Part shown: piece after piece, positions 818-41,911 of the stretch | Position numbering within the stretch: the stretch's first letter is position 1 | Layout of the letters: the number at the start of each line of letters is the position of its first letter | Assembly (NCBI GenBank): GCA_963663225.1 | Contig: OY760142.1 | Span: forward strand, 1,824,001 to 1,888,000 | Source of the DNA: Nitrospirota bacterium | Lineage (GTDB): Bacteria; Nitrospirota; UBA9217 | DNA: 64,000 bases | Direction of reading: 5' to 3' | Made by a program: the position numbers and the translations under genes | Notes under the pieces: model-generated | Seen by the model: only the letters and a program-made list of their open reading frames with translations | The model's database searches: none | What the model was told of the DNA's origin: nothing

Positions 818-963
818 CGTAGATTTTTAACGTTTAAAACTTTATTTGTTAAACTGCTTGAAAATTGCAGTTTTTTCACTCATCGTTCGACTCACAAAAA
901 CTACATCAAAACTGCATGCTCGCACTGATCGCGAAATCTGCCGTTATCAGGAAAAAGCTTGCC

Positions 964-1263
964 CTACTTGGGTTTTTTATTAAAAGCGCCCGACATAAAA
1001 ACAGTTACCAGTATTCCGACTGTTAGCCCACCGAGAAATATTTTTGCGTTCTGTAAGAGGCGGCCTGCTTCAGAGTCAGATAACACTGTGTGAGCCATCT
1101 GCATTACTTTTAAAACAGACCACATGATGGCGCAGGAACCGGAAATTCGAATAGCCCTTCTAGACCAAACAGAAGCATATGGCATTTTTTTAACCGTTCC
1201 AATTGATAGCAACAATGCCAATCCTCCGAGTGTAACGATTATTAGTAATATATAGTCAGCCAT
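964..1263 (-). CDS. Hypothetical small membrane protein
   Basis: 99-aa ORF with three hydrophobic stretches. Confidence 0.6.
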   Translation of the reverse strand: MADYILLIIVTLGGLALLLSIGTVKKMPYASVWSRRAIRISGSCAIMWSVLKVMQMAHTVLSDSEAGRLLQNAKIFLGGLTVGILVTVFMSGAFNKKPK

Positions 1264-1418
1264 AGTTGTTTATAAATTTACGCCATCACATTTTTAATTA
1301 TTTTGGGGTGCCGATCCCAAATCTGTAACTGTAAAATACCAATAGTACTATACATCCCAGCGATCCGTGCCAGGCTGCGACCTACAGGAAGAAACGATGC
1401 AGTACGCTACTATTACCG

Positions 1419-1850
1419 TCAATCTTTTTGCGGTGCAACAATAGATCCATCCATTAATACGACGACAAATAAATAGCTTCCTGATGAGCCGTATCCTTTA
1501 ATCCTTTGAGTAAACTCAATCAAATAATACCATCTATCGTTTAATTCAGGCCAGTTGATCCTCAGAAGTTTAATCGAATTGACATCATAACTTTCAAAAT
1601 TAATGTACTGCTTATTCGCCCATGCTTTTGATAAGGATATGGCTTTATCAGTTGTAATAGGAGCCGTCGTTCTATTTTCAGGAGACCATACAGGTAATAT
1701 GGATGCTTTTTTAGTTGTGATTTTAAAAACCTCATGTGTACCATCAGCTTTTCTTACATCATAAAGGGTAACTTCTGGTTTATTTTGGGCAACAGATATG
1801 ATGGGTAGAAGAAGAACTATGATAGCCACTATGGCCCGATATATTTTCAT
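1419..1850 (-). CDS. Hypothetical secreted protein
   Basis: Signal peptide MKIYRAIVAIIVLLLPIISVA; GGGG RBS upstream. Confidence 0.7.
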   Translation of the reverse strand: MKIYRAIVAIIVLLLPIISVAQNKPEVTLYDVRKADGTHEVFKITTKKASILPVWSPENRTTAPITTDKAISLSKAWANKQYINFESYDVNSIKLLRINWPELNDRWYYLIEFTQRIKGYGSSGSYLFVVVLMDGSIVAPQKD

Positions 1851-1984
1851 TTTAATCCCCGCTTTACGAGTACACTGACATGCAAATAACAGGTTGTAAC
1901 ATAGTATACGCTCACTTTGAGCCTGGGTACGATGTATCAGGAAGTATCCTGTAGTTTTAAACTTACGATATTCTCAATAATTTA

Positions 1985-2440
1985 TCACCGCAGTTTCTCC
2001 ATAAACACGAGCTCAACTTTCGGCGACAACTGATCAGTACGGCAAATCTTATAACCAAGTCGTTTGTACAATCGGATATTGCCCTCGCTTAAAGCTCCGG
2101 TAAATAATTCAAACCGTTTGAGAAGGGGAAATGCCGTCTCAAGAGCAATCATCAGTTGGGTGCCAATGCCCCTGCGCTGAAACTCTGGGTGAACGATCAA
2201 GCGCCCGATATGACACGTATCGTCTTGAACGGCCGCCCTGACAGATCCTACAATCCTGCCGGAATGGATTGCTTTAAAGATATTTTTTTTCTCGAATTCT
2301 TTTTCCAGTTCGCCCAGTGTCTGGGTTAATGGCGGAATATTATAATCATTATATAAGGCTGCTTCGCTTTGATAGGCAAGTTACTGAAGTTCGAGTAGTG
2401 CGGCTGCATCTGTTTTGTCTGCTCTGAAAATTTCAGTCAT
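1985..2440 (-). pseudogene. GNAT acetyltransferase with an in-frame TAA at codon 20
   Basis: ATG at 2440 reads MTEIFRADKTDAAALLELQ*LAYQSEAALYND...IGRLIVHPEFQRRGIG; TAA at 2383-2381; same frame continues to the GNAT motif A (VHPEFQRRGIG). Confidence 0.8.
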
Positions 2441-2775
2441 AATTCCGCCGCTTCCGGATTCGTGGATATTTGATCACCGGCAACCAATGGAAGCTAAAAT
2501 TTAATAAACGAATATACCATAAAATAAACGCCACAGACAGCATTTTATCTACCTGTCCTCTGCATTGTCGGCAAATGGCGCACAGAATCAGAGTATTGTA
2601 AAGCGAATCTCTCGAGGAAATAACGAAGAAAATTTGGATTTGCTATAAAAAATCGCTTCACATTTCCTCTTTTTTATTGTACTCTTACGATATACATTCA
2701 TTGCCGTTTGAACCTGAATAAAGAACCCGGTTTCACTAAAAACACACCAAGACCAATAACCAGGGAGCTTTTTTT

Positions 2776-5007
2776 ATGGAAAGCAAAACGCCCGGCCCCT
2801 CCAAAGGATACCAGAAGCAGATTAAAAAGGACGATCAACCGAAGCCAAAACCCAAAAGCAGCTACAATCCGGATTATTCCTCACCGACCGCGAAGAAATG
2901 GCCCCAATTCATAGAGGCCCTGCAGACAGGAAACGCGGAAACCGTCAAACAGCTGATCGAAGAAGGCATCAATGTAAATATTCTGCGCGAAGGCGCCACA
3001 CCGTTGATGGTTGCCGCTTACAAAGGGCAAACGGAAATTGCGGAAATCATTCTGCAGGCGGGCGCGAATATCAACGAAAAGAATGAAGACGGTTGGACCG
3101 CGCTGCACAAGGCGGCATACGAGCAGGACAAAACAGAAATCATTGATCTGCTGATGCAGTCAGGTGCTGACGTCGAAGCAAAGAACAGGTTCGGAAAGAC
3201 GGCGCTGCAGCTGGCAGAAGAAAAAAGCCATCGTGATATTGTACGGGTCATCAAAAGCCATTTGACGCAGCAGAGCCAGGACGTGCAGGAATGGGAAGAT
3301 TTTCTGAACACGCCCGACGGCAAACCGTACAAGCAGACACGACGCTACGAATCGCTGGCGCCCTTGTTTAAATTCTGGTGGCTGCCTTTACCTGTGCTTG
3401 GCGCTATCGGACTTCTGATCGGTTTTTTGTCCGGCCTCGCTCTTCTGCTGTGCATTATCGGCATTGTGTCCGGAGCCTTTGCCGGACTTGGTATCTTTTT
3501 GTGGGAGCGCAATCTGCGGACATATTTGGACGGATTGGGGCCCCTGCCGCATCTGGATATCCACATATTGCGCCAGAAAAGAAAGGCGGGAGAATCCTTG
3601 GCAGCGGCGGCTCAACAGAAGTCAGGACCCGTTGATGCTGCAACCGACGACCAGTCCGCGGAGAAGTCCGGAGAGACAGGCACCTTTCAAGCTGTTCTCG
3701 ACCAGGCGTCTGCCGAGGGACGGTCAGACGATCTGGGCCTTATACAGACCCGGAAGACAATCGGAAGACGAAAACTAGAAATCGGCATGTACGCCGCGAT
3801 AGCGGTACTTGCAATTCTTGCGATTACGGCTCTTGTTTACAGAAATTCAATTGTTCAGTGGTACTCCGCAAAGAAGCTGGAACGAAGCGGGATTCAGCTT
3901 TCCGAGCGGGCGTTCCTGGCAGAAGTATCAAAGAACAATGAAGAAGCAGTGAGCCTGTTCATCAACGCAGGAATCAACCTGGCCGCGAAGGATGAGCAGG
4001 GCAGAACCGCTCTGATGATCGCCGCAGAAAAAGAGAACGCAGCGATACTCAAGAGACTGGTCAAGCGCGACCCTGCGTTGCTGAACCATTATGATTCGAA
4101 CGGGAACACGGCCCTGATGAACGCCGCGCGCCAAGGACGCATAACTGCTGTGTCGCTGCTGCTCGAAAACGGCGCAGATGTCAATTACCTCGTGCCTTCG
4201 GCAGAAGGCGCGGCCACGGCACTGCAGGCGGTTTTGAGCGCCCCGGATTTCAAAGACGAGCACATGAATGTTCTCCAGAAACTTCTGCAGCAGGGCGCCC
4301 AGGTGAAAGCCCGAAACAAGGCGGGTCAGTTTCCGCTGCTGTTCGCAGCCGAACACGGCTATACGAAAGCGGCGGTATCGCTCCTGGAGCAGGGGGCTGA
4401 TATCAACGACATGACTCCGACCGGCCAGTTTCCGTTGATGGTGGCCGCCTGTAAGGGATACTTTGAATTTATCGCGACCCTTGCGTCAAAAGGCGCGAAC
4501 ATGATGACGACCCAGCCTGACGGAAAAACACCGCTTATGTGCGCCGCTCAGGAGGGCCACATAAGTACGATCAGGGTCCTCCTTGAGAACGGTTCGAATA
4601 TCAATGCAAAAACAGCAAGCGGCGCGACCGCACTGACGGAGGCCACCAGAGCGGGGCGTGTCGAGGCCATACCGGTTCTTCTCGAACAGGGGGCAGACCC
4701 CGATGGGTCATATATCCCGGATTCATTTCTGGCCTTGCAGGGGAAAAAAGTTGCGATCAGTGCAAAAAATGACAAAGCCGGCGACATTGTAAAGCGGATC
4801 GGTAAACAGGCCGCTCTGGACGGGTATACGGTTAACGACAGGACAAGCAAGGAACAAAAAATTACGGCCTCGTTGAAAGGTTCATGGAACAGGATGCTGA
4901 TGGAACTGTCAAAGAAAAATCCTGTTGTGCTTGCAGTGAAAGACAAGGAAGTGTTTGTCTGGTCCTATAATCCGGCGGCTGTAAAGCGCGACGCAGGAAC
5001 GCCGTGA
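2776..5007 (+). CDS. Ankyrin-repeat membrane protein
   Basis: Many GxTPL/TAL..AA..G ankyrin repeats on both sides of about three hydrophobic helices. Confidence 0.9.
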   Translation: MESKTPGPSKGYQKQIKKDDQPKPKPKSSYNPDYSSPTAKKWPQFIEALQTGNAETVKQLIEEGINVNILREGATPLMVAAYKGQTEIAEIILQAGANINEKNEDGWTALHKAAYEQDKTEIIDLLMQSGADVEAKNRFGKTALQLAEEKSHRDIVRVIKSHLTQQSQDVQEWEDFLNTPDGKPYKQTRRYESLAPLFKFWWLPLPVLGAIGLLIGFLSGLALLLCIIGIVSGAFAGLGIFLWERNLRTYLDGLGPLPHLDIHILRQKRKAGESLAAAAQQKSGPVDAATDDQSAEKSGETGTFQAVLDQASAEGRSDDLGLIQTRKTIGRRKLEIGMYAAIAVLAILAITALVYRNSIVQWYSAKKLERSGIQLSERAFLAEVSKNNEEAVSLFINAGINLAAKDEQGRTALMIAAEKENAAILKRLVKRDPALLNHYDSNGNTALMNAARQGRITAVSLLLENGADVNYLVPSAEGAATALQAVLSAPDFKDEHMNVLQKLLQQGAQVKARNKAGQFPLLFAAEHGYTKAAVSLLEQGADINDMTPTGQFPLMVAACKGYFEFIATLASKGANMMTTQPDGKTPLMCAAQEGHISTIRVLLENGSNINAKTASGATALTEATRAGRVEAIPVLLEQGADPDGSYIPDSFLALQGKKVAISAKNDKAGDIVKRIGKQAALDGYTVNDRTSKEQKITASLKGSWNRMLMELSKKNPVVLAVKDKEVFVWSYNPAAVKRDAGTP

Positions 5008-35662: not shown

Positions 35663-35838
35663 CAAACAAACGGCAGGGTTGAATAATCATAAATTGGGTA
35701 TCAGGAATTAATCTTTGGGAGGGTATTTCCAACAGTGCCGATACCCTTTAAGCTTTTTAATTGTTTGACTTTCTGCATACGCACCGCCTATAATAAAGAC
35801 AATACGAGAACATCCATCCGACTGGCACGGAGGCTGAT

Positions 35839-36543
35839 ATGTCCGGCGCAAAGAAGCTGGGGGAAATGCTGAAAGAAGCGGGTCTCATCGATGATTTCCA
35901 GCTCCAAACTGCATTATCACATCAGCGCAACTGGGGAGGGAAACTGGGCTCCATCCTCATCGAACTGGAGTTCGTCAGAGAAGAAGACATCGCGAGGGTC
36001 ATTGCGCAGAAACTGCACATTCCCCATATTAATCTCTTCGAACCGGAAATTCCCGAAAACATAGTTAAAATGATCAAGTCTGACATTGCAAAAAAATACA
36101 ATGCAATGCCGGTCAAGAAAGAGGGGGGGGCGCTGGTTCTCGCCATGTTTGACCCCTTCGATCTCAAGGCGGCGGATGAGATCCGGTTTATCACCGGCCT
36201 TACCATAAAGCCTACCCTTGCCATGGAGTCAGAAATCAGGGATGCCATCAGAAAATATTACGATGGGGAACGGGTGGACCGCACGCAGGCGAGGTCATTG
36301 TATCATCAACGGGAGAGAGAGCCCGGGAAGATGGAAATTATTCACGCACGGGATCCTATCAAATCGAAAAAACCGGGAACTGATGACGACGCCCCGCTTC
36401 CGGCCAAGGATGCTGCGGCTTTCCAGGAGCTGAGTGATGCCAAGATGCGGATAGATGCGTTGATTGCCTTGCTGATAGAGAAAAAAATAATTACCCGTGA
36501 AGAACTCGTCAGCATGATTTACCAGAAAAAAATAGGACTATAA
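35839..36543 (+). CDS. Stand-alone MshEN / GspE-N domain protein without ATPase
   Basis: KKLGEMLKEAGLI..FQLQTAL..Q and KLGSILIELEFV repeats, then LAMFDPFD; no Walker motifs. Confidence 0.8.
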   Translation: MSGAKKLGEMLKEAGLIDDFQLQTALSHQRNWGGKLGSILIELEFVREEDIARVIAQKLHIPHINLFEPEIPENIVKMIKSDIAKKYNAMPVKKEGGALVLAMFDPFDLKAADEIRFITGLTIKPTLAMESEIRDAIRKYYDGERVDRTQARSLYHQREREPGKMEIIHARDPIKSKKPGTDDDAPLPAKDAAAFQELSDAKMRIDALIALLIEKKIITREELVSMIYQKKIGL

Positions 36544-36586
36544 CCACGGATTGAGACTCCAGAACACACGAGGCAGGGCCGACCAC

Positions 36587-37009
36587 ATGGCAAAGAACGA
36601 CAAAAAGAACAATATGAGTAATATTTTTTTGTTCAGCACGCTGTTGGTTTTTTTTCTGAGCGCCGGCGCGGCGCTCGCGCAGGACCATAACGGGCCCCGG
36701 ATCGAAGTCAGGGAAATGCGGTATGATTTCGGAAAGGTGCCCCAGGGGGAGCAGGCAACCCATATTTTTCAGGTGCGCAATGCCGGGAACGAACCGCTCG
36801 TTATTGACCGGGTTGTTCCGTCATGAGGCTGCTCAGCCGCGGTGATTAGTTCTAATCACCTGGAACCGGGAATTGCCGGGCAGATACAGGTCAGTGTGGA
36901 TACCCGGGGGAGAAACGGTCTCCTCGCGAAATACATCACGATCTATTCCAATGATCGTACGAACCCGGTAATAACCCTGAACGTAACCATGGACATTGTC
37001 AAAAAATAA
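36587..37009 (+). CDS. Secreted DUF1573 (Ig-like) protein with in-frame TGA, candidate selenoprotein (SUGC)
   Basis: YDFGKV..GE...HIF.VRNAGNEPLVIDRVVPS-TGA(36824-36826)-GCSAA...LEPG..GQI.V.VDT...KYITIYSND; reading through gives a complete domain ending at TAA 37009. Confidence 0.8.
36841..36860 (+). promoter_or_regulatory. SECIS-like hairpin
   Basis: Perfect 8-bp stem ggtgatta/taatcacc with loop GTTC; loop G is the 23rd nt after the TGA. Confidence 0.65.
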
Positions 37010-37329
37010 CCGGGAAAAAGTGGGAAAACCTGTTTTTAATGTAGAACTATTTCCTTGACAATTTTCAGCCCGGTATGTTACTGTCCATATCAGTAAACTG
37101 GTCCATCAGGGTTCCAAACACCCAATAGAGAGGCAGTACGATCTTGAAACAGCACAGACATCCTCAATACCCCAGCGACATGCCTACCCCGGGCATAGGT
37201 CCCGCCCCGGCGGGACTATCTTAATTTTCGTCGCACAAATCAGTCATCTTTTTAACTATATCTCGCTTGCGTATGCTTGCGTTAAAAAACCGACGGTTGT
37301 TTCGTCTTACATTGTTGGAGGGTAACACT

Positions 37330-41685: not shown

Positions 41686-41761
41686 GGGCCGGTAGCTCAG
41701 TTGGTAGAGCACCGCCCTTTTAAGGCGGGTGTCCTGGGTCCGAATCCCAGCCGGCTCACCA
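41686..41761 (+). tRNA. tRNA-Lys (UUU)
   Basis: Cloverleaf gggccgg/ccggctc, anticodon loop cTTTTaa, CCA encoded; T-loop TCCGAAT. Confidence 0.95.
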
Positions 41762-41833: not shown

Positions 41834-41911
41834 GTCCCCATCGTCTAGCCCGGCCCAGGACACCGCCCTTTCACGGCGATAACAGGGGTTCGAATCCCCT
41901 TGGGGACGCCA
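41834..41911 (+). tRNA. tRNA-Glu (UUC), integration target
   Basis: gtcccca/tggggac acceptor stem, anticodon loop ctTTCac, GGTTCGAATCC, CCA. Confidence 0.96.

Follow-up and report, generated by a model that had tools for sequence, protein, structure and literature searches.

Introduction

The closest described relatives of the gene reported here belong to OS_HP2, one of six new selenoprotein families found by Zhang and Gladyshev in 2007 in the symbionts of Olavius algarvensis; as given in the accessible portion of that report, the family then consisted of two selenocysteine (Sec, U) sequences and was without a Cys homologue (PMC1976440). A table of the 2008 GOS study carries the entry "OS_HP2, pfam07610, UxC" and counts for it 2 Sec sequences against 354 Cys homologues (PMC2398784), and the available parts of reviews of 2022 (PMC9312934) and 2026 (PMC13188914) list a DUF1573 selenoprotein with a "UGC" motif. 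A full-text literature search for "DUF1573" found no paper on its function. Here we describe a gene of this kind at positions 36587 to 37009 of a 64,000-nucleotide stretch of contig OY760142.1 from a Nitrospirota bacterium (the window, meaning the whole stretch that was analysed). We conclude that it very probably encodes an exported DUF1573 selenoprotein of the OS_HP2 group, in which UGA codon 80 would specify selenocysteine with the help of a selenocysteine insertion sequence (SECIS) hairpin, and whose product would serve as a redox relay.

The window protein resembles OS_HP2 in several respects. It shares the PF07610 domain and carries Sec in a UxC (UGC) motif, at the place of the leading Cys of CGC; in the window gene, too, the UGA has a SECIS-like hairpin behind it, and the host likewise belongs with the sulfate-reducer-type, selenoprotein-rich bacteria described in the papers. 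The best match of the protein in NCBIfam is NF041425, the "OS_HP2 family (seleno)protein", although the window's clade lies under the cut-off of that model, and the likeness is drawn by domain, motif and family model rather than by comparison with the original sequences. The novelty of the family that the first-pass annotation of this DNA had implied is therefore not upheld: OS_HP2 was described by Zhang and Gladyshev in 2007/2008, appears in two reviews and is represented by a model in NCBIfam. Since the family has been published as a selenoprotein since 2007, the DUF1573 UxC selenoprotein is a known kind, and what is new is limited to the window gene as a member that is currently mis-annotated.

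A DUF1573 gene interrupted by an in-frame TGA

The main features of the gene are as follows.

36587..37009, + strand: selenoprotein gene with a DUF1573 Ig-like product, 140 codons plus TAA, TGA codon 80 read as Sec
36587..36679, + strand: predicted Sec-type signal peptide, residues 1-31, read from the sequence
36824..36826, + strand: putative Sec codon (UGA, residue U80) that opens the U-G-C motif, a TGA column kept in orthologues
36841..36860, + strand: predicted bacterial SECIS hairpin inside the coding region, from folding, covariation and published criteria

The reading frame opens with ATG at 36587, meets TGA at 36824-36826 (codon 80) and closes with TAA at 37007-37009, with exactly 60 sense codons lying between the two stops. 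Read through, the motif is P-S-U-G-C-S, with C82 encoded by TGC at 36830-36832. The Pfam DUF1573 model (PF07610) matches residues 39-128 of the read-through product with 84.5 bits (cut-off 26.1), and therefore the domain bridges the TGA; in a profile search the same product also matches a HYDIN/VesB-like Ig domain. Both the coordinates and the Pfam match thus agree with the first-pass annotation, which had noticed that the open reading frame (ORF) track ends at the TGA while the frame runs on for 60 more codons and completes the domain.

Under translation table 11 the listed ORF, 36551..36826, closes at the TGA, and a separate 55-codon ORF with a GTG start is listed at 36842..37009. A word-index search of the protein collection gave 3 hits, none with a name; the window gene and a 90% identical NCBI sequence are present there solely as 79-residue fragments, the truncation by annotation pipelines that had been predicted from the sequence. 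These same facts are what could be said for reading the TGA as an ordinary stop, arising from a nonsense mutation or a sequencing error or ending an intended 79-residue product, with the 60 codons beyond it either untranslated or expressed separately from the GTG at 36842. Such a stop, however, would halve the PF07610 domain, and the comparisons below bear on it further.

Conservation of the TGA and of the codons beyond it

A six-frame search for the protein in 61 related genomes found it in 47 of them, including 32 of the 36 from the window's own family. From these, the 30 best loci were extracted, one per genome, with the window's own genome among the 30. All 30 of these own-family orthologues have TGA at the same column, within the motif [PT/SA][ST]-U-G-C-[TSA]-A. 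Fourteen further loci gave 15 matches, in which the TGA forms carry TGA at this column (8/8) and the Cys forms carry Cys there (7/7). The search for homologues with TGA aligned to Cys that had been proposed at the outset thus gave a uniform answer, and the first-pass statement that DUF1573 domains usually have SCGC at this place is also borne out, since the Cys forms read [STP]-C-G-C-T at the TGA site (7/7 carry [STP]-C-G-C). Across the alignment of 45 sequences, U/C80, G81 and C82 are invariant, as are G49, G67, L71, G95, D123 and P127.

The codons after the TGA were compared with those before it in the 30 orthologues. None of them has a stop codon in the 55 codons 3' of the TGA, where the variability at the three codon positions is 0.185/0.156/0.407, as against 0.252/0.193/0.396 in the 42 codons before it. 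Therefore, the codons beyond the TGA evolve as coding sequence. In addition, a contig from an independent metagenome study, X5, spans the entire region compared and shows 9 differences over 601 nt, all of them outside the TGA and the hairpin; its two differences 3' of the TGA are, as read by eye, synonymous third-position changes. These comparative sequence data rule out both a sequencing error and a private nonsense mutation as the source of the TGA.

The distribution of the family was extended by a scan of 301 genomes of the phylum at a match threshold of E <= 1e-10, which gave matches in 124 genomes, 57 of the 63 genomes of the window's own family included, and none in some large families, f9 (0/50 genomes), f10 (0/28) and f17 (0/25). 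The TGA position was checked in the extracted loci, and the other places were counted for in-frame TGA codons. Among 139 listed places, counted by hand, 103 have at least one in-frame TGA and 35 have none, while one has a TAG alone; on inspection this last locus proved to be a Cys-form ORF without an internal stop.

Two further variants of the family deserve mention in their own right. In another family, a 385-residue variant (L087, G151:C99, ORF 1208..2362 on the + strand) has U-K-R-C, that is UxxC, instead of U-G-C, and its DUF1573 domain is preceded by a long N-terminal extension; the long form with one TGA occurs in 2 genomes (G128 and G151). At L067 (G055:C12:84000-97000), three Cys-form DUF1573 genes lie inside 9 kb, two of which bear extra Ig-like (ASH/CARDB-like) domains and not a cytochrome domain, making a third family architecture.

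A covarying hairpin downstream of the TGA

The consensus for bacterial SECIS elements, as set out in the accessible part of the 2026 review, allows 3-9 nt in the apical loop, 4-16 bp in the upper stem and 16-37 nt from the UGA to the loop; one of the first two loop bases is a G, mostly followed by G/U, and the free energy is <= -7.5 kcal/mol (PMC13188914). By direct measurement, the window hairpin falls within all of these published limits. Its stem, GGTGATTA/TAATCACC, has 8 bp (36841-36848 and 36853-36860) and encloses a 4-nt loop, GTTC (36849-36852), which begins with G and then U; this first base, at 36849, is 23 nt past the last base of the TGA, a UGA-to-loop spacing of 22 nt. The first-pass annotation had noticed this perfect 8-bp stem with its GTTC loop and had placed the loop G 23 nt from the TGA. 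The 20-nt hairpin alone folds with -8.2 kcal/mol (z = -4.35; 1 of 200 shuffles as good), and a 57-nt stretch with -23.4 kcal/mol (z = -2.87). The window hairpin is thus the same as the consensus described in that part of the review in loop, stem, G-U, spacing and energy, and differs from it in that its loop, A-G-U-U-C, is fixed in the window's clade; its role as a SECIS element is proposed from sequence.

We then aligned the 48 nt from the TGA onward in 30 sequences. The loop A-G-U-U-C is invariant in all of them, and the 7-bp stem of the family is paired in 98.1% of 210 cells. Compensatory changes occur at 3 of the 7 pairs and in 26 cells, with G-C replaced by C-G in 5, A-U by G-C in 11 and U-A by C-G in 10, and a fourth pair alternates between U-A and U-G. 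The observed percentage of paired cells, the number of doubly changed cells and the covariation score were each matched by 0 of 500 shuffles, and slid controls were paired in 19-49% of cells. A downward extension of the stem by three pairs is partly conserved, its middle pair being unpaired in 19 of 30. The expectation of a conserved hairpin at this place is therefore confirmed, with covariation.

Hairpins also occur beyond the 30 orthologues. Each of the 8 further Sec forms folds one in the region, with energies of -8.6 to -16.2 kcal/mol, and in five Sec forms of other lineages (L051-L055) the stems differ greatly in sequence and stand at the same place. Among the Cys forms, 6 of 7 fold more weakly than -7.5 kcal/mol, and the seventh reaches -10.4 kcal/mol. 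At gathering thresholds, an Rfam search of the window gave two tRNAs and no match at the hairpin.

A second, smaller hairpin lies directly after the TGA.

36827..36838, + strand: small ggct/agcc hairpin, present in the window, not conserved

It had been noted together with the 8-bp stem, and its presence is correct. As part of the element, however, it was rejected: 61.7% of its cells are paired in the alignment, which equals the shuffles, and no pair is changed on both sides.

Selenocysteine machinery of the genome

The window's own genome is a single contig of 3.26 Mb that is 99% complete. It has a tRNA-Sec at 3214210-3214304 (Rfam 62.8 bits; called by ARAGORN as SeC with anticodon tca), SelB (wing domain, 80.2 bits), SelA (520.6 bits) and SelD (372.2 bits). 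All of selA, selB, selC and selD, whose presence the first-pass annotation had proposed to check, are therefore found, the tRNA-Sec being selC. The selD gene, at G000:C1:522565-523479 (-), has one in-frame TGA and thus probably encodes a Sec-containing SelD. Beside selD stands another Rfam tRNA-Sec match (L002, G000:C1:522308-522451, - strand), 144 nt long and above the cut-off with 48.9 bits, at which ARAGORN calls no tRNA.

As described above, a TGA column kept in all 38 Sec-form loci examined and aligned to an invariant Cys, codons beyond it that evolve as coding sequence, and its retention in the independent assembly X5 speak against an ordinary stop. So do a covarying hairpin that accompanies the TGA forms and not most of the Cys forms, and a Sec machinery that is complete. 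We regard the probability that the TGA is an ordinary stop as negligible. The outcomes that the first-pass annotation had given as refuting, a genome free of Sec machinery or relatives with Cys throughout and no conserved hairpin, were both looked for, and each time the data spoke for a selenoprotein. The selenoprotein interpretation is strongly supported, about as strongly as comparative genomics permits.

Export and predicted fold

The N-terminus of the protein has a Lys-rich n-region and a hydrophobic core, followed by A-L-A and then Q-D. Cleavage before Q32 is predicted on this basis, so that the protein would carry a signal peptide of the secretory Sec type and be exported to the periplasm. 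The orthologues likewise have a hydrophobic stretch that closes with A-x-A or a related motif, and Q-[DE] comes next. In the mature protein, U80 and C82 are the sole Cys/Sec residues.

An AlphaFold2 model, built on a 45-row alignment, assigns residues 41-140 a confidence (pLDDT) of 94-98, and residues 1-30 are modelled with low confidence. It contains a helix at 12-30, of low confidence, and then a sandwich of eight strands, in which U80 is placed in a short turn between strands 71-78 and 83-87. The best Foldseek matches are Ig domains of the ASH, PapD-like and HYDIN types together with 2qsv (probability 1.00, TMq 0.66). An uncharacterised protein of P. gingivalis, 2qsv is also the single clear sequence match among solved structures (profile E-value 3.5e-06, residues 34-126). 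The Ig-like beta-sandwich fold is common to the window protein and these domains; however, the aligned domain of 2qsv lacks CGC at the matching place, and a redox function is known for none of these structures.

Taken together, the gene would encode the 140-residue precursor of a small Ig-like (ASH/PapD-like) DUF1573 protein. The hairpin 22 nt downstream would recruit SelB with Sec-tRNA(Sec) by the standard bacterial mechanism, so that UGA codon 80 is translated as selenocysteine, and the signal peptide would direct the product to the periplasm. There, U80 and C82, located in a tight turn between two strands, may alternate between the selenol/thiol and selenenylsulfide states, and this couple may act as a redox relay, as the cytochrome c fusions and the DsbA-like link of the relatives suggest.

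Cytochrome c fusions and a DsbA-like partner

The functional proposal draws on the relatives. In three other families, 8 Cys-form ORFs have a DUF1573 domain followed by a cytochrome c domain of the Cytochrome_CBB3 type, and the nearest Cys forms of the window protein are such fusions rather than stand-alone proteins. Directly upstream of the fusion gene in six Cys-form loci lies a gene for a DsbA-like thioredoxin-fold protein with an invariant C-x-H-C; the two genes overlap by 1 base in one locus and are about 10 bases apart in others, and in a seventh Cys-form locus a DsbA-like sequence follows in frame, ahead of the contig end. Four further families contribute 8 Sec-form ORFs with a C-terminal extension bearing two CxxCH motifs, and Pfam confirmed one of these ORFs. 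The DUF1573 domain of the fusions is homologous to the window protein (34-47% identity) and shares its C/U-G-C turn, and the fusions also have a signal peptide. What sets them apart is an added C-terminal domain, about 100 residues long, in which two CxxCH motifs lie; some Cys forms also pair with a DsbA-like gene, whereas the window protein is a stand-alone domain.

The Sec-form fusions are neighboured by housekeeping genes. Around five distant forms and nine fusion loci, we found mostly SSF/sulfate transporters, YceD, PlsX, DksA, PCMT and UbiA, and no shared partner in these neighbourhoods besides the DsbA-like gene. An AIRS-domain neighbour at one locus, considered as a candidate SelD, proved to be ThiL.

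In the window's own genome, the best-matching homologue of the DsbA-like partner is itself predicted to be an exported selenoprotein, with U-P-H-C as its active site. It is encoded at G000:C1:2655435-2655914 (L075, ORF within 937..2004, + strand), begins with a signal peptide, has its in-frame TGA in the active site and matches Thioredoxin_4 with 76.9 bits; DsbA-like selenoproteins are a family already on the published lists. Directly after it, at about 1943..3085 of this locus, follows a gene with two CxxCH motifs that resembles, by eye, a di-haem cytochrome c peroxidase. A complex prediction for the DsbA-like protein with the DUF1573 domain, made for a Cys-form pair from one genome, scored 0.09 (mark 0.32) and counts neither way.

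From these arrangements we infer that haem c and thiol-disulfide proteins are the partners with which the C/U-G-C turn exchanges electrons. A vicinal C-G-C redox centre is known in the bacilliredoxins BrxA/BrxB (YphP/YqiW), which are cytoplasmic and have a thioredoxin-like fold. The comparison with them is one of motif analogy, not homology, as the DUF1573 fold is Ig-like; one of the aligned relatives gives a weak match to TIGR04191 (E = 0.00058).

Two other roles can be imagined for a true selenoprotein of this type. In the first, U-x-C would bind a soft metal such as Cu(I) or Hg(II), and the protein would act in the periplasm as a chaperone or scavenger and not as a redox relay. A pair of neighbouring soft ligands in a turn that the model places in an exposed position could allow linear two-coordinate binding, and periplasmic Ig-like metallochaperones do exist. 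Moreover, the tables in the available parts of the reviews place metal-related selenoproteins of the 2007 study, namely MerT-like, cation ATPase, CobW-like and YHS, beside DUF1573 (PMC9312934, PMC13188914). However, no conserved His, Met or additional Cys stands alongside the motif in the 45 sequences, and no metal-resistance genes adjoin any locus inspected. Because the cytochrome c fusion and the DsbA-like link recur, and suggest electron or disulfide transfer, a selenenylsulfide redox relay is favoured over the metal site, which we judge to be quite unlikely.

In the second, U80/C82 would carry sulfur or selenium as a persulfide- or perselenide-type adduct, so that the protein would be a carrier and not an electron relay. 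It would be likened to the periplasmic carrier SoxY, and the window protein, small, Ig-like and predicted to be periplasmic, with Gly-flanked reactive residues in an apparently exposed turn of the model, could suit such a function. No genes for sulfur oxidation or sulfur transfer, however, lie beside any locus inspected, and the cytochrome c fusion partner fits plain electron transfer too. We consider a sulfur or selenium carrier highly unlikely.

A possible DsbB/VKOR-independent module

The redox relay can be placed in a wider scheme. DUF1573 C/U-G-C could be the thiol/selenol end of an undescribed periplasmic redox module that passes electrons between a DsbA-like protein and haem c, which would form or reduce disulfides by a route free of DsbB and VKOR; the window form would be a detached, selenium-boosted version of it and might work with the U-P-H-C DsbA-like protein of its own genome. 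We put this forward tentatively, as a proposal that is unlikely to hold. Several observations fit it: cytochrome fusions occur in at least 8 families, and three families have a DsbA-like gene next to the DUF1573 gene or joined to it; searches of 9 fusion-bearing genomes yielded no DsbB and no VKOR; and families strong in VKOR are without a DUF1573 match, VKOR occurring in 24 of 25 genomes in f17 and in 10 of 50 in f9. DsbB is rare in the phylum (17 of 301 genomes).

On the other side, DsbB and VKOR are in any case missing from most families of the phylum, and the counts of DsbB/VKOR against DUF1573 come from related genomes, which are not independent samples. The fusion-bearing genome G283 carries a VKOR, and the window's own genome has a weak VKOR-like match and is without a homologue of the fused cytochrome. 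Hence, the distribution of DsbB and VKOR fits a route from DUF1573 to cytochrome c and falls short of showing one.

Observations that weigh against the proposed selenoprotein and relay

A number of observations count against the interpretation given here and are brought together in this section. The case for selenocysteine insertion at codon 80 is a comparative one, made from sequence. Of the five covariation measures, two are not above the shuffles, namely the pairs changed on both sides (296/500) and the further pair types (500/500). Furthermore, because the hairpin sits inside coding sequence, its conservation is partly due to constraint on the protein. In several cases, nevertheless, a paired change alters the amino acid on one side (Ile/Val with Asn/Asp, His/Arg), and since such changes cost an amino-acid replacement, an RNA constraint appears to act on the stem in addition to the protein constraint.

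The membership in OS_HP2 is subject to a similar reservation. On NF041425 the window protein scores 83.7 bits, whereas the curated cut-off stands at 100. The model is matched by each of the 45 aligned relatives, Cys forms among them (best E-value 7.5e-25), and the three bit scores seen among these matches (83.7, 83.7 and 78.0) are all below 100; therefore the window's clade falls outside the curated model and, by its cut-off, the window protein is not a curated OS_HP2 member.

As for the redox relay, its support is indirect and comes from the fusions of the relatives and their DsbA-like linkage. No DsbA-like gene was found within about 2 kb of the Sec-form fusions in the ten loci queried (L078-L087), and the window's family has the stand-alone DUF1573 form only. 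Two protein queries and the Pfam model found no homologue of the cytochrome domain in the window's own genome, and none of the conserved neighbours of the gene, described below, is a redox protein.

Genomic neighbourhood

Other features of the window in the vicinity of the selenoprotein gene are these.

35839..36543, + strand: stand-alone MshEN-domain protein of 234 residues with a cyclic di-GMP-binding motif (PF05157, 80.6 bits; NF053729, 70.9 bits, cut-off 38)
41686-41758 and 41834-41908, + strand: two tRNA genes, at the Rfam gathering threshold

The motif of the MshEN protein is of the MshE type that binds cyclic di-GMP. Its gene is the immediate upstream neighbour of the selenoprotein gene in 28 of 30 orthologous loci, the other two being cut by contig ends, and was not seen beside the distant forms in the flank of about 500 nt examined. 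The other conserved neighbours are a TtcA-like protein (23/30), a class-V aminotransferase (27/30) and SerA, the last checked in the window. A promoter-like site at 35765-35794 (11/12 matches) and a terminator-like site at 37198-37217 flank the MshEN and selenoprotein genes, so that the two may form one transcription unit; both sites are consensus matches and no commoner than in shuffles.

Implications

The window gene and its orthologues are truncated in annotation, and TGA forms occur in many other families of the phylum too. As NF041425 falls short of the window's clade, a looser or an additional family model would recover many selenoproteins. The linkage to cytochrome c and to DsbA-like proteins provides a functional lead that is worth a bench test. 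The family has been on selenoprotein lists for almost twenty years without a function, and these links offer a testable idea, in which its members may act as redox relays.

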